A DNA stretch of 64,000 nucleotides from Pontiella sp. (GCA_050290185.1 JBNKHE010000002.1:256001-320000), one strand, 5' to 3'. Counted from the stretch's first letter, positions 44,433 to 63,058 are shown. The notes: generated by a model from the letters alone, not told the origin. Translations and numbers: made by a program.

Positions 44433-44501
44433 AGAGATATTCCTTTCCTTACGGAATCGCGCTATACCATTCCGCAAAGCGCAAGCGAAGGAAAGGGAGA
44501 A

Positions 44502-45134
44502 ATGAACGAGCAAAAACAAGCCGTAGCCGACTGCATGAACCGTCTCTACCGGCAGGGGCTGACCACCACCTCCGGCGGCAACATTTCCCTGCGCCTTTCC
44601 GAAGACCTCATCCTGCTCACCCCATCCGCCACCGACAAGGGCAACATGACGGCTGACCAGATTGCCGAGATCAGCATGGACGGCACGAACTATACTTCGC
44701 ACCTCAAACCCAGCGGCGAAACCTCGATGCACCTGGAAATCTACAAGCGCCGTCCCGATGTGCAGGCCATCGTCCACGCCCATCCGCCGATGGCCAGCGT
44801 GTTTGCCGTGATCGACAAACCGCTCAATGTCCGCCTGATTGCGGAATCGTACGCCATTCTCGGCACGCCCGCCATCGCGCCCTATGCGCTGACCGGAACG
44901 CAGGAGCTGGCGGATGCCGTGGCCGCTTGCCTAACCGGAAACACCGCCTGCGTCCTGATGAAAAACCATGGAGCTCTGTGTGTTGGCGGCAGCCTCCTCG
45001 AAGCCTTCGACCGCATGGAAGTGCTGGAAAACGCCGCCAAGATCAACCTCTTCGCCGCTCAGCTTGGCGGGGTGCATGAACTGAACGACGCGCAGTGCGC
45101 CGCGCTCGACGATTGGGTTGGACGCCATGGCTGA
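44502..45134 (+). CDS. Class II aldolase/adducin family protein (FucA-like; candidate (methylthio/5-deoxy)ribulose-1-phosphate aldolase)
   Basis: GGNIS, TPS, KPSGE-x-x-MH, VHAHP, NHG; GGGAG RBS; divergent from mtnA. Confidence 0.85.
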   Translation: MNEQKQAVADCMNRLYRQGLTTTSGGNISLRLSEDLILLTPSATDKGNMTADQIAEISMDGTNYTSHLKPSGETSMHLEIYKRRPDVQAIVHAHPPMASVFAVIDKPLNVRLIAESYAILGTPAIAPYALTGTQELADAVAACLTGNTACVLMKNHGALCVGGSLLEAFDRMEVLENAAKINLFAAQLGGVHELNDAQCAALDDWVGRHG

Positions 45135-47502
45135 CATCGTCCTCGCCGCGTTCAACGCCCGCTATGCGCACAGCTCCTTCGGCGCGCGCTACCTGCTCGC
45201 CAACCTTGGCGAAATGCAGGAACAGTCCGAACTGTTGGAGTTCGATCTCGCCGTCCAGCCGCGCATCGCCGTAGAAAAGATCCTCGCGCACCACCCGCGC
45301 ATCGTCGGTATCGGATGCTACATCTGGAACATTGACCTCGCCACCCAAGTCGCCGCCCTGCTTAAAGCCATCCGGCCCGACATCGCCCTCGTTCTCGGCG
45401 GCCCCGAAATCAGCTACGAAACCGAGCAGCAGGAAATCTTCACCTATGCCGACCACGTCATCTGCGGCGAAGGCGAAATCGAATTCCCGAAACTGTGCTC
45501 TGCTCTTTTATGCAGGCGGAACGCCTGCAATACAACGGATGTACCGCAGGCGTCCCGCCTGCCCCGCATCATCCACGCCGAGCCGGTGGATGTATCGCAG
45601 ATCGAGATGCCGTACGAGCTCTATACCGACGAAGACATCGCCCATCGAGCCATCTATGTCGAGGCCTCGCGCGGGTGCCCGTTCCGGTGCGAATACTGCA
45701 TGTCGTCGCTCGATCCGTGCGTGCGCTATTTCCCGAAGGAGCGGTTTCTCGCCGCGATGGGAAAACTGCTCGACCGTGGGGCCCGCACGTTCAAGTTTGT
45801 CGACCGCAGCTTTAATATCGACATCCCCTTCGCGCTGGAAATCCTCGCCTTTTTCCGCGAGCGCTACACGCCGGACATGATGCTCCATTTCGAAGTCATT
45901 CCCAGCCACCTGCCGGACGAACTGATGAATGCCGTCAAGGAATGCTCGCCCGGCATGCTCCAGTTCGAGATCGGCATCCAGACCTTCAACGAAGAGGTCG
46001 CCCACCGCATCCAGCGCCCGCTCAACATCGCAAGGGTCGAAGCCAACATGCGGCGGTTGCGCGCGGAAACGGGCGTGCATATCCATGCCGACCTGATTGC
46101 CGGCTTGCCCGGCGAAGATATGGAAAGCTTTGAAGACGGCTTCAACCGGCTGCTGTCGCTCAATCCACAGGAGATCCAGCTCGGCATTTTGAAGCGCCTG
46201 CGCGGTGCGCCGATCGACCGGCATACCCGTGACTGGGACATGGTCTACAGTCCGCACGCGCCCTACGAAATCCTGCAAACCAGTCTGATCTCCTTCGAGC
46301 AGATGCAACGCATCCAGCGTTTCGCGCGCTACTGGAACCTCACCGTCAACAACGGTCAATTCATCCAAACCGCCCCGCTGATTTGGCAAACCGTACCGCA
46401 GGCGTCCCGCCTGCCCGAGGAAGCCGTACCGACAGGTGATTGCGCGCAAGCAAGCAATCTTCGCCTGCCTCCCGAAACAACCGGATTCAATCCGCACCGG
46501 GAAATTCACCAAACTCGACGCAAACACTATCCCCACTGGACGCAGGATGATTCCACCTATTTCGTGACATTCCGGCTGGCTGATTCGATACCGCAGTCCC
46601 GCATAAAGGAATACGAGGAATTGCGCCGCAAATGGGAAGAACATCATCAACCGCCCTATTCGGAACAGGAACAGATCCGGTTTAACGAGCTGTTCTCAAA
46701 CCGAATCAATGAATGGCTGGATGAAGGCGCCGGCTCCTGCTGCCTGCGTGATCCGGAAATTTCGCGGATGGTGGCCGATACGCTGCGTCACTTCGATGGC
46801 GACCGCTACGACCTGGATGAATGGGTGGTCATGCCCAACCATGTTCATCTGCTGGTACGTCCCCGGGCAGGGCATGAACTTCCGGACATCCTGCATTCTT
46901 GGAAATCGTTTTCAGCCCACGCTATAAACACTTCTCTGAAGCGAACCGGAAAACTCTGGCAGACCGAAAGCTACGACCACATCGTTCGAAACATGGAAGA
47001 ACTGCACCGGATTCGAAGCTATATCCGGAAAAACCCGGAAAAGGCCGGCATTCGTGTTTCCCATGCGGGAAGCAGGCGGGACGCCTGCGATACAGCCCCC
47101 GAGCTGCAGGACGCCCCAGCCGTACCGACAGGTGATTGCGCGCAAGCAAGCAATCTCCGCCTGCCAGAGCAAACCGTACCGCAGGCGTCCCGCCTGCCAC
47201 AGGAGTCATCCCCATTCGCGGCCTTCATGCAGTGGAGCGACTGGCTCTATGCCCAAACCAACACCACCGGTAACCTGCACATGCTGCGGCTCGCCAAATT
47301 GCTGATGCAGTTTCTGACCAAGGAAAAAGGATTGGATCCACAAGCCGTGGCCGAAGCACTCTGGAACGACTACCAGCGTGGAAACCGCCCCGATATTCCC
47401 GGCTTCCTGAAAAAGTTTGGGTTTGGACAAGGCCGGCAAGATGCCGGCGGTACCAACGAACCACAGGCGTCTCGTTTGCCTCGTCAGTCGCGGCACTTGT
47501 AA
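45127..47502 (+). CDS. B12-binding radical SAM protein (DUF4080-type) with an in-frame RAYT transposase insertion
   Basis: N-x-RY-x-HS, YIWN, LGGPE, GEGE, EASRGCPFRCEYC (CxxxCxxC), FEIGIQT, HADLIAGLP; the host C-terminus resumes after the insert at SPFAAFMQWSDWLY. Confidence 0.88.
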   Translation: MADIVLAAFNARYAHSSFGARYLLANLGEMQEQSELLEFDLAVQPRIAVEKILAHHPRIVGIGCYIWNIDLATQVAALLKAIRPDIALVLGGPEISYETEQQEIFTYADHVICGEGEIEFPKLCSALLCRRNACNTTDVPQASRLPRIIHAEPVDVSQIEMPYELYTDEDIAHRAIYVEASRGCPFRCEYCMSSLDPCVRYFPKERFLAAMGKLLDRGARTFKFVDRSFNIDIPFALEILAFFRERYTPDMMLHFEVIPSHLPDELMNAVKECSPGMLQFEIGIQTFNEEVAHRIQRPLNIARVEANMRRLRAETGVHIHADLIAGLPGEDMESFEDGFNRLLSLNPQEIQLGILKRLRGAPIDRHTRDWDMVYSPHAPYEILQTSLISFEQMQRIQRFARYWNLTVNNGQFIQTAPLIWQTVPQASRLPEEAVPTGDCAQASNLRLPPETTGFNPHREIHQTRRKHYPHWTQDDSTYFVTFRLADSIPQSRIKEYEELRRKWEEHHQPPYSEQEQIRFNELFSNRINEWLDEGAGSCCLRDPEISRMVADTLRHFDGDRYDLDEWVVMPNHVHLLVRPRAGHELPDILHSWKSFSAHAINTSLKRTGKLWQTESYDHIVRNMEELHRIRSYIRKNPEKAGIRVSHAGSRRDACDTAPELQDAPAVPTGDCAQASNLRLPEQTVPQASRLPQESSPFAAFMQWSDWLYAQTNTTGNLHMLRLAKLLMQFLTKEKGLDPQAVAEALWNDYQRGNRPDIPGFLKKFGFGQGRQDAGGTNEPQASRLPRQSRHL
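45512..45563. repeat. Intragenic inverted REP doublet
   Basis: GCAGGCGGAACGCCTGCAATAC (45512-45533, minus) and GTACCGCAGGCGTCCCGCCTGCC (45541-45563, plus). Confidence 0.85.
46386..47198 (+). mobile_element. REP-flanked RAYT (TnpA-REP, IS200/IS605-superfamily Y1 HUH) module inside the radical SAM ORF
   Basis: PHW...YFVTFRL, MPNHVH (HUH, 46840-46848), WK-x-FS, WQ-x-ESYDHIVR, YI-x-x-NP (Tyr 47020-47022); flanked by identical 30-bp and near-identical 48-bp direct repeats. Confidence 0.9.
47432..47480. repeat. Degenerate REP doublet at the 3' end of the radical SAM ORF
   Basis: GCCGGCAAGATGCCGGCGGTAC (minus) and GAACCACAGGCGTCTCGTTTGCC (plus, degenerate). Confidence 0.7.
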
Positions 47503-47532
47503 TGCCCGTTCATCTCATCTAGAAAGAACATC

Positions 47533-48393
47533 ATGACCGAAGAAAACAAGAACAGCGGCGGGCAACTGAGTCTACTGGTCGCCATGCAGAACGTTGAGCC
47601 CGTGTGCGAATGGGTGCGCGAAGCGCTGTGCAAGGAACCGATCGAAATGTTGCGACCATTGGCTGATGAGGCGCAGATCGAAGTCTATTTCGACTCCCTG
47701 CTCGAAGCGCAGATTGCGCAAAAGGCCCTACCGCCGGAACTGAACATTCTCGCCGCCGAAGCCAAGGAATATCTGGAGCAGGACTGGACCACCTTCTGGC
47801 AGCACCATTTCAAGACCATGGAACTGGGCCATAACCTGCGGATCGTGCCGGAATGGGAAGAAGCGCCCGAGGATGAGCGAATCAATATCATCATCAATCC
47901 CGGCCTAAGCTTCGGTACCGGAGGGCACTTTACCACCAAATTCTGTCTGGAGGCGCTGGAGCAGGCGGTACAGGAACTGAGGCCAGAAACCATGATCGAC
48001 GCCGGCACCGGCAGCGGGATCCTTTCCATCGCCGCCATCAAACTCGGCATCCCCGACATCGTGGCATTCGACTACGACCCGGTCTGCGTGGATCAATGCA
48101 ACGAGAATGCCGAACGCAACGGTGTGGAGGGAATGATCCACTTTTTCCAGGTCGACGTGCTGGAGCCGGGATGGAACGCCAAACCGGCCGATATCGTCTG
48201 CGCTAATATCCTGACCTCGGTGCTGCTCGACGCCGCGCCGCTGATCAAGCGCGCCGCAAAGAAACGTATCCTGCTCAGCGGCATCCGGGAAATCGAAGCC
48301 GATGCCGTTGCAGAAACCTTCATCCAGCTCGGAGGTCGCGAGGTCTCGCGCGATGGTGACGGGCAATGGTGCGGGCTGGTGATCGATGTCTAA
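47533..48393 (+). CDS. prmA: Ribosomal protein L11 methyltransferase
   Basis: DW-x-x-x-W, INPGLSFGTGGH-x-TT, DAGTGSGILSI, ANIL, LSGI. Confidence 0.9.
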   Translation: MTEENKNSGGQLSLLVAMQNVEPVCEWVREALCKEPIEMLRPLADEAQIEVYFDSLLEAQIAQKALPPELNILAAEAKEYLEQDWTTFWQHHFKTMELGHNLRIVPEWEEAPEDERINIIINPGLSFGTGGHFTTKFCLEALEQAVQELRPETMIDAGTGSGILSIAAIKLGIPDIVAFDYDPVCVDQCNENAERNGVEGMIHFFQVDVLEPGWNAKPADIVCANILTSVLLDAAPLIKRAAKKRILLSGIREIEADAVAETFIQLGGREVSRDGDGQWCGLVIDV

Positions 48394-62956: not shown

Positions 62957-63058
62957 GCAGGCGAGCCGCCTGCGATACGTCTACCGTACCGCCCGCTGCC
63001 AGCGGGCTTCGGAGCCGCTAGGATGGCGGCGATACAAACTGTACCGCAGTTCCGCGGT
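62957..63058. repeat. Cluster of four REP-like hairpins in alternating orientation (same family as those in the radical SAM gene)
   Basis: Units at 62957-62978 (-), 62986-63007 (+), 63014-63035 (-) and 63041-63058 (+, degenerate), each GTA(C/T)CGC plus hairpin. Confidence 0.8.

Follow-up and report, generated by a model that had tools for sequence, protein, structure and literature searches.

A REP-bracketed RAYT carried in frame inside a B12-binding radical SAM gene of Pontiella: a probable translated passenger

Introduction

How can a transposase persist in the middle of an enzyme gene that its host seems to need? This question is raised by a stretch of 64,000 nucleotides from Pontiella sp. 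(GCA_050290185.1, JBNKHE010000002.1:256001-320000), here called the window, with positions counted from its first letter. One open reading frame (ORF) of the window encodes a B12-binding radical S-adenosylmethionine (rSAM) enzyme that encloses a tyrosine transposase of the kind associated with repetitive extragenic palindromes (REPs), denoted as RAYT. RAYTs are the standard example of a bacterial transposase that has been 'domesticated' and kept in single copy, and the mode of their persistence is an open question. A preliminary description of the locus had noticed the enclosed domain and left undecided whether it is selfish or domesticated; the in-frame REPs that bracket the RAYT, the REP doublets in the N-terminal host part and at the C-terminus, and the recurrence of the arrangement across genomes were not part of it. 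The analysis presented here indicates that the insert is probably a complete REPtron (a RAYT with its REPs), carried as a translated, non-splicing passenger of the DUF4080 B12-radical-SAM gene and tolerated there, with a selfish nature more likely than a domesticated one.

A RAYT splits the DUF4080 domain of the host enzyme

The plus strand holds a single stop-free frame at 45118..47502 (GC content ~59%), which comprises 794 aa from a TTG or 791 aa from the ATG at 45127, the latter being counted as residue 1 throughout. The ORF listing and Pfam bear out the earlier report of one stop-free ORF of 791 codons with an intact CxxxCxxC motif. Its host part combines a B12-binding domain, a CxxxCxxC radical-SAM core, and a C-terminal DUF4080 domain, which places it in the class of DUF4080 B12-radical-SAM enzymes, and is 70-82% identical to uninterrupted orthologues when the insert is excluded. 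The C-terminal piece alone (47200-47499; the last 100 residues) gives a weak DUF4080 match (E 0.007, 17 bits), and the match to profile positions 57-125 is corroborated by alignment with the uninterrupted orthologues. Profile matches and alignment together show that the insert splits DUF4080 between the adjacent profile positions 56|57, at a position referred to below as site b. The split domain and the alignment agree with the interruption described earlier, i.e. about 270 residues after ...TAPLIW, followed by resumption of the host: compared with clean orthologues the insert amounts to 270 aa (spacing of 282 versus 12 residues at site b), and the sequence after it restarts at SPFAAFMQW.

The fused gene is the genome's sole orthologue, the next match being 23% identical. 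Its host segments show ratios of nonsynonymous to synonymous substitution (dN/dS) of 0.10-0.26 among the three site-b loci compared, with 0.10-0.11 in the radical-SAM core. Single copy and purifying selection suggest that the host gene is still needed.

The insert was described as bearing all Y1-HUH hallmarks, and this is supported. YFVTFRL, MPNHVH, WQTESYDHIVR, and YIRKNP are all present, Pfam Y1_Tnp is matched at aa 560-635 with 35.1 bits (cut-off 23), and the best-scoring NCBIfam family is REP_Tyr_transpos (NF047646; E 7.4e-21, profile positions 27-136 of 146). The sole PDB sequence match is E. coli TnpA-REP (4ER8), in an alignment that spans the HUH and YI..NP motifs. A model of the RAYT alone reaches a predicted local distance difference test (pLDDT) value of 84.4, and Foldseek places 4er8_A on top (E 3.8e-7, template modelling score 0.62 on the target), followed by TnpA of ISDra2, IS200, and IS608. 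Among 73 embedded or long-frame relatives, the HUH histidines and the Trp are conserved in 73/73 and the Tyr, which from the family literature we take to be the catalytic residue, in 72/73; one sequence (L045, with a stop in the extended slice) was dropped from one alignment.

Selection on the RAYT segment was assessed in the three site-b loci. The proportion of nonsynonymous differences (pN) is 0.15-0.19, synonymous sites are saturated in 2/3 pairs, and the sole pair with computable dS gives a dN/dS of 0.067. For L001, L003, and L007, the proportion of synonymous differences (pS) is higher in the RAYT (0.72-0.78) than in the host segments (0.47-0.62) in all three pairs, which points to differing codon constraints or to a coalescence of the insert that is older than that of the host gene.

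The RAYT was said to lack a start of its own, and indeed no ATG, GTG, or TTG occurs across the 45 codons preceding its PHW motif in the window, likewise in seven other rSAM-embedded loci. Free-standing relatives have an upstream ATG within 25 codons in 13/14 cases, embedded or long-frame ones in 2/37 (L040, in which the PHW motif was not found, is left out of this count). The window's RAYT (aa 452-648 of the 791-aa ORF) differs from a free-standing gene with its own start. A scan of the gene for sigma-70-like consensus sites gave 0 sites versus 1.5 in shuffles, a weak indication, as the phylum's promoter types may differ. Sequence conservation and the lack of a start suggest a maintained enzyme that would depend on the host frame, its catalysis being assumed from what is known of the family. 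The genome encodes one RAYT of this kind and one weak, distant match. This only other Y1_Tnp-like match (G000:C2:67708-67986) lies in a 163-codon frame and is 32% identical over the C-terminal half of the RAYT.

REPs lie in frame as predicted linkers and are kept as hairpins

The REP of this locus is a 22-nt hairpin composed of a GTAYC foot, a 7-bp stem (GCAGGCG/CGCCTGC), and a 3-nt loop. The pattern GTAYC-GCAGGCG-NNN-CGCCTGC has seven matches in the window versus 0.04 expected, and 5/7 lie in the fused gene. In-frame REPs starting at 46393 (+), 47072 (-), and 47176 (+), with a GTAC or GTAT foot, bracket the RAYT and are translated as VPQASRL if forward and as RRDACD if reverse. The premise of the preliminary description that REPs are extragenic does not apply here, since they lie inside the ORF and would be read as linkers. 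A longer hairpin, T2, has two copies genome-wide, one on either side of the RAYT. The resulting direct repeats are spaced by 783 nt (REP) and 696 nt (T2), both multiples of 3.

Two further doublets reside in the gene. The one in the linker between the B12-binding domain and the radical-SAM core (site a) is a REPIN-like inverted pair that folds as a single long hairpin (dG -23, DNA parameters), and its position is the one where other lineages hold the RAYT. The C-terminal doublet consists of an intact variant hairpin in reverse orientation (47432-47453; GCCGGCA AGA TGCCGGC plus GGTAC) and a degenerate forward REP (47460-47480). Both doublets are absent from some orthologues (e.g. P0031) and are predicted to be disordered.

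AlphaFold models the host domains of the full-length protein with confidence (DUF4080 first part ~90, second part 78-96) and predicts that the two halves of DUF4080 pack against each other despite the insert. The linkers on both sides of the RAYT (aa 425-473 and 636-692) and the C-terminal tail (aa 770-791) have pLDDT values <50, and the linkers are thus predicted to be disordered.

In 11/11 loci of the lineage, the REP directly after the RAYT lies at the same place and combines a GATAC-type foot and a 3-nt loop with a 7-bp stem free of mismatches, and 3/7 stem pairs are changed on both sides among these 11 loci. The stem variants are GCAGGCG/CGCCTGC, GCCTGCT/AGCAGGC, and GCCGGCA/TGCCGGC, and the encoded peptide varies freely. 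Perfect stems with paired changes, a dN/dS of 0.45-0.73 in the right linker, and the low pLDDT of the linkers show that the REPs are kept as DNA hairpins and not as peptides.

Genome-wide, the strict pattern has 10 copies, five of them in the fused gene, and a control pattern read backwards has none. A loose pattern has 19 matches, the others mostly at gene edges. The genome is a draft of 163 contigs, in which repeats may be under-assembled. Elsewhere in the window, an intact REP (GTATC GCAGGCG GCT CGCCTGC) is found at 62957-62978 (-), at the upstream edge of a 2123-codon minus-strand open frame.

The insert is not an assembly artefact

Logan contigs from four runs of one study, which may include the source sample, bridge every junction, with separate contigs spanning host-REP-T2, T2-RAYT, and RAYT-REPs-host C-terminus. 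Together with fused genes in many independent assemblies, including that of the cultured Pontiella sulfatireligans, the bridged junctions confirm that the insert is genuine. One contig of run X3 joins 46388 to 47209 in frame, with 10 other letters at the joint, a depth of 2.9, and 30 nt on one side. It probably comes from a related strain whose allele is clean and does not look like a product of excision; no joining, insert-free contig was found in X1, X2, or X4. Two further X3 contigs skip 54 nt, or 79 nt with 4 others between, in the right linker (47094-47174) and represent frame-keeping length variants of the REP/T2 array.

Patchy presence and varied insertion sites among orthologues

The best 120 relatives of the full-length protein served as the protein-relative set, and 44 of them carry the RAYT: 14 at site b, 28 at site a, and two (P0010 and P0022) at the C-terminal end, as a read-through fusion (site c). 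Carriers include Pontiella sulfatireligans (WP_136063453.1, 776 aa) and two isolate-named Pontiellaceae. Of 41 species-representative genomes, 33 have the gene; the RAYT lies inside it in 10, the gene is unfused in 20, and three are cut by contig ends. Site b is occupied in G000, G006, and G017, site a in G009, G010, and G015 and, in another family, in G029, G030, G037, and G038. The orthologue alignment proposed earlier yielded both empty alleles and the exact junction. Clean unfused orthologues are e.g. P0027, P0031, and P0042, and unfused orthologues with REP-coded scars at the insertion sites are P0029, P0045, P0051, P0061, and P0117. The REP-coded junctions differ in both length and sequence from one orthologue to another.

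In a FastTree phylogeny of 118 host proteins, the states a, b, c, scar, and clean are interleaved within Pontiellaceae, and neighbours of different state include P0011 (a) next to P0001/P0002 (b), P0010 (c) next to P0003/P0006 (b), and P0040 (empty) next to P0018 (a). Fixation of the RAYT in a distant clade, in which 21/21 proteins of the tree carry it, was considered and rejected: only 4/14 genomes of the genus are fused, and the 21/21 is an ascertainment bias, because the best-120 list favours long fused proteins.

The RAYTs group partly by site, contrary to the host tree. Two protein pairs are mosaic. In P0005/P0026, host windows are mostly 77-87% identical and REP-RAYT-REP is 93-100% identical; P0020/P0025 is similar, and in both pairs the inserts are 97-100% identical versus 77-93% for the host parts. 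These sequences suggest that the insert recently entered a diverged allele at the same site by transfer. Relative to the host core, the RAYT has diverged more within families (aa identity 0.72-0.88 versus 0.77-0.97) and less between families (0.63-0.73 versus 0.54-0.59). The latter pattern fits transfer of the RAYT from one family to another, and unequal evolutionary rates could likewise have given rise to it.

A different repeat-like peptide (..HEDTKNSK...SCSSSLRG.., ..RRKDAKKENLAVCNLGDFAPLRE..) occurs in the B12/rSAM linker of P0027, P0051, P0042, and P0008 (alignment columns ~449-500), which suggests a second family of small elements also inserting in frame at this hotspot.

The same RAYT clade in many other host genes

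A search for further genes with in-frame RAYTs, likewise proposed in the preliminary description, found many. In 40 related genomes, RAYT relatives reside in open frames of up to 1043 aa. Hosts recognised by Pfam are PriA (9 loci), XseA, HypF, Mur ligase, CCA/poly(A) nucleotidyltransferase, diphosphomevalonate decarboxylase, TatD, Fic, and a VF530 protein. In 26/30 loci, one repeat of at least 15 nt is found on both sides of the RAYT, usually a hairpin whose foot (GTAG, GTGG, or GTAC) varies with the host lineage. A search limited to long proteins gave 1736 matches, with hosts including valyl-tRNA synthetase (ValRS) of Chthoniobacterales-type Verrucomicrobiota, a planctomycete alanyl-tRNA synthetase (AlaRS), Eco57I/MmeI-type enzymes, dGTPase, and a cyanobacterial protein. 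An independent metagenome scan covered 80 loci, of which 55 lie in frames of at least 330 aa, 24 in short frames off contig ends, and one is cut. A recognisable host domain was found in 40/49 long metagenome ORFs scanned (L087, which has an internal TAG, and L125, L127, L129, L132, and L133, because of their size, were left out); the hosts are ValRS, leucyl-tRNA synthetase, AlaRS, CarB, UvrA, restriction-modification enzymes/methylases, helicases, UDPGP, Fic, and the rSAM protein.

In a quick tree of the RAYTs, the embedded ones form one clade with few free-standing members (SH-aLRT 96), and free-standing RAYTs are mostly basal. Fic-embedded RAYTs nest within the site-b group, and HypF-embedded ones are sister to the site-a group. 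The insert of the window is a member of a large RAYT clade of Planctomycetes-Verrucomicrobia-Chlamydiae (PVC) bacteria and beyond, mostly located in housekeeping and DNA/RNA-enzyme genes.

Some of these loci deserve separate mention. In G031 (L012), the rSAM gene (G031:C19:18012-19232) is unfused in a 504-codon frame, and a RAYT of the same lineage (65% identical, with a GCAGGCG REP) lies in HypF between the YrdC-like and Kae1-like domains. Two RAYT domains each are present in P0126 (AlaRS, Planctomycetota; aa 29-228 and 662-861) and in P0121 (an Eco57I-type enzyme; aa 274-471 and 1137-1332). The embedded RAYT relative L087 has a single in-frame TAG at codon 945 of a 1256-codon frame, which could reflect a pseudogene, a sequencing error, or recoding; single TAGs also occur in the matches of four relatives.

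Features of the locus

The features of the fused gene are compiled in Table 1. A class II aldolase gene lies upstream, with an 8-nt overlap with the ORF start, and prmA lies downstream.

Table 1. Features of the fused gene in the window (positions from the first letter of the window)
Feature	Position	Strand	Basis
Fused ORF, B12-binding radical-SAM/DUF4080 enzyme with REP-RAYT-REP insert	45127..47502	+	791 codons; alternative TTG 45118
B12-binding domain, aa 9-122	45151..45492	+	Pfam PF02310, E 8e-14
Site-a REP, foot GTATT, read as ..RRNACN..	45512..45533	-	pattern match; pLDDT <50 at aa 133-142
Site-a REP, read as VPQASRL	45541..45562	+	pattern match
Radical-SAM core, aa 179-337, CxxxCxxC (CPFRCEYC) intact	45661..46137	+	Pfam PF04055, E 3.9e-17
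DUF4080 first part, profile 2-56, aa 369-423, ends ...TAPLIWQ	46231..46395	+	Pfam and orthologue alignment
Left-linker REP, GTACC GCAGGCG TCC CGCCTGC	46393..46414	+	pattern match
Left-linker T2, 48-nt longer hairpin, same GTACCG foot	46422..46469	+	repeat comparison
RAYT (Y1 HUH) domain, ~197 aa, aa 452-648	46480..47070	+	motifs PHW, YFVTFR, NHVH, WQ..DH..R, YI..NP; profiles; fold
Right-linker REP directly 3' of RAYT, read as RRDACD	47072..47093	-	pattern match
Right-linker T2, second copy, 47/48 nt identical to first	47118..47165	+	repeat comparison
Right-linker REP	47176..47197	+	pattern match
DUF4080 second part, profile 57-125, restarts at SPFAAFMQWSDWLY	47206..47409	+	profile match and orthologue alignment
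C-terminal REP doublet, read as ..GRQDAGGTNEPQASRLP..	47432..47480	.	read off sequence

Comparison with known systems

The RAYT of the window shares with the known REPtrons (E. coli yafM, 4ER8; Nunvar 2010, Ton-Hoang 2012, Messing 2012, Bertels 2017, Quentin 2018, Corneloup 2021) the Y1-HUH motif, the Tyr of YI..NP, the fold, the bracketing by inverted short GC-rich hairpins with a conserved foot, and, one weak and distant match aside, the single copy per genome. In contrast to these, the whole unit resides in a host ORF, in frame and without its own start, the REPs would be translated, the foot is GTAC or GTAT and not GTAG, and the genome-wide REP population is very small. According to PMC8266576, the biochemistry of RAYTs is established, and E. 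coli TnpA-REP is given as a monomer in PMC3479197, which counts for the feasibility of a passenger.

In-frame intragenic REPs are known as well; as stated in PMC3733652 (Di Nocera 2013), they are most abundant in the verrucomicrobium Opitutus terrae, often in DNA-repair or replication genes, and Rickettsia palindromic elements (RPEs), cited there, likewise lie in frame within genes. The doublets at site a and at the C-terminus are of the same kind. These reports cover only 7-80 repeat-encoded aa, whereas here the transposase itself lies inside the ORF, and the supplementary intragenic-REP list of PMC3733652 contains short REP-coded stretches only and no transposase entry. Subclass 2.4 tnpA-REP genes carry REPs in frame inside the RAYT gene (Quentin 2018, PMC6006769); they are alike in the tolerance of in-frame REPs and in similar motifs (NH[IFV]H, WQ, YIxNNP, ~194 aa) and differ in that there the RAYT hosts the REPs, whereas here an unrelated enzyme hosts both REPs and RAYT. 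In the full-text literature searched, no account of a RAYT residing within the ORF of a host protein was found, the supplements of Quentin 2018 (Figure S1, long proteins) lying outside this search; the words fusion and fused are absent from Bertels 2017.

With inteins, the insert shares the character of a selfish in-frame element of ~200-300 aa in conserved proteins, patchy among relatives and recurrent at certain sites. It differs in the lack of a Hint or splicing domain, of conserved junction residues, and of any sign of removal, and in that its enzyme is a single-stranded (ss) DNA transposase and not a homing endonuclease. An intein was rejected on the grounds that only four Pfam families are matched at E<=0.01, none of them Hint or intein, and that the junctions are variable; the earlier characterisation as intein-like in position but without intein motifs is accurate. 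IStrons combine a group I intron with IS200/IS605-type genes inside ORFs and are spliced out as RNA. They are comparable in that a relative of IS200/IS605 elements resides in protein-coding genes without destroying them, whereas no intron-type RNA was found for the window's insert, which is kept open in the host frame. A self-splicing intron or IStron was rejected after an Rfam scan of 44500-48000, which gave only spurious miRNA-hairpin matches on the REP doublet.

Discussion

An intact RAYT carried in frame by a radical-SAM host was the core of the preliminary description, and every point of it that was examined holds as far as sequence comparison can tell: no chimera or stop separates the two parts, Y1_Tnp is matched, orthologues without the insert exist, and REPs are present. 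The question of selfishness or domestication now leans to the former, given the patchy presence, the three sites in one gene, and the occurrence of the same RAYT clade in many unrelated hosts. We regard the insert as a tolerated selfish element rather than as a newly acquired function of the enzyme that carries it.

The probable course of events can be outlined as follows. The REPtron has the same orientation and frame as its host and no promoter or start of its own, from which we infer that it would be made only within the host polypeptide. Its REPs would be read as long disordered linkers, so that the halves of DUF4080 are predicted to pack normally and the RAYT to fold as a separate lobe. 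By analogy with its family, the RAYT may be catalytically competent on ssDNA REP hairpins with a GTAY foot, and its activity would preserve the hairpin form of the REPs beside and near it. On evolutionary time scales, this activity would permit loss of the unit with REP scars remaining, and the unit may shift among the REP-marked sites of the gene, i.e. the B12/rSAM linker, the DUF4080 loop, and the C-terminus, and may occasionally enter other genes such as Fic or HypF. Residence in frame within a needed single-copy gene would provide expression and may also guard against sloppy deletion.

A bolder proposal, which is put forward tentatively and is somewhat doubtful, is that of a distinct class of mobile elements, obligately in-frame REPtrons with an intein-like ecology that are never spliced. 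Such elements would persist through their residence in needed genes, with the transposase borne by the host protein as an additional lobe on REP-encoded tethers. They would re-enter these genes in other lineages via pre-seeded REPs as in-frame landing pads, so that gain, shift, and loss would follow one another in a cycle akin to homing. The proposal would account for one RAYT lineage at three sites of one gene in two families, inserts that are 97-100% identical in host alleles 77-93% identical, and a RAYT that is less diverged than its host between families, though it evolves faster within them.

Several observations weigh against the passenger interpretation. That the fused enzyme works is a presumption. 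Among the sequencing runs that hold the stretch there is no RNA run, and a literature search for proteomes or transcriptomes of cultured carriers returned nothing usable. The REP family of the genome itself is tiny (about 10 good copies, five of them in the fused gene), which leaves little substrate for the enzyme and fits a decaying or domesticated element too. Among 26 fused Pontiellaceae proteins, distances in the host part are weakly correlated with those in the RAYT (Mantel r 0.28, attained in 1/2000 permutations), as is also expected of a vertically inherited domesticated domain. The mosaic pairs stem from metagenome assemblies and may therefore be chimeras, and in none of the within-family pairs among the 10 loci compared as DNA is the RAYT more similar than the host core (L008/L057, near-identical throughout with a host core of 99%, were not counted). 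Since no DNA-level pair was found and the metagenome scan returned only 4 close relatives, the mosaic of insert transfer rests on the two protein pairs. The RAYT lobe has a moderate pLDDT of ~50-75 in the full-length model, and the score for REP_Tyr_transpos (74.6 bits) is under the cut-off of 80.

The insert could instead be a domesticated fusion, in which RAYT lobe and REPs are co-opted by the host (e.g. for regulation or protection of the locus, or REP upkeep) and kept for their benefit. RAYTs in general are housekeeping-like, single copy, and mostly vertical, according to PMC5581495 and PMC8266576, and the one RAYT copy of this genome, the strong purifying selection on it, the distance correlation, and the tie of the lineage to the same gene in two families would all suit such a role. 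This explanation is nevertheless considered unlikely, as 10 fused genes stand against 20 unfused ones in the 33 genomes of both families, sister alleles are unlike in state and in site, the linkers show no conservation at the peptide level, and the presence of the same clade in functionally unrelated hosts argues against a host-specific function. That the in-frame RAYT acts as a separate protein has a small probability; it would be freed by translation starting internally at a non-canonical codon, or by proteolytic cleavage of the linkers, after which the host fragments would reassemble. The ~50-aa linkers on each side are predicted to be disordered and the DUF4080 halves to pack together, and a few embedded relatives (L033, L052) have an ATG 7 codons before PHW; against this stand the lack of ATG, GTG, and TTG in the 45 upstream codons of the window and of seven rSAM-embedded loci and, weakly, the absence of a promoter-like site in the consensus scan.

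It is very improbable that the insert is removed before the enzyme is made, whether at the DNA level, with the RAYT excising it in some of the cells, or by RNA or protein splicing. The in-frame joining contig of X3, the direct repeats at multiple-of-3 spacings, and the empty alleles with REP scars might be read in this way, but that contig, with its 10 extra letters and low depth, resembles the clean allele of another strain and has no counterpart in the other three runs. Furthermore, the Rfam scan gave no intron family, no intein or Hint family was found, the junction residues vary, and RNA splicing would not require strong selection on the RAYT in the host frame. A dead host gene or a chimeric assembly with a coincidentally open frame, which the domain-based knowledge of the host and the draft state of the genome might invite, is already contradicted by a 791-codon frame at ~59% GC, by the low dN/dS of the host segments of a single-copy gene, by the bridged junctions of this locus, and by the same architecture in dozens of independent assemblies including isolates.

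The passenger interpretation extends beyond this locus, and what began as a single-gene curiosity may now be regarded as a clade-wide lifestyle. Judging from the host genes listed above, a large RAYT clade appears to persist within other proteins, of which many are essential (PriA, aminoacyl-tRNA synthetases, UvrA, CarB). Beside inteins and self-splicing introns, this would constitute a third route, by which a selfish element stays in frame and inert on flexible tethers. The fusions provide natural cases in which many enzymes tolerate an additional domain of ~270 aa at defined sites, and they carry a warning for annotation, in that RAYTs labelled as 'fusion or annotation error' are real. With Pontiella sulfatireligans, a cultured carrier is available, which opens expression, activity, and mobility of such elements to direct study.

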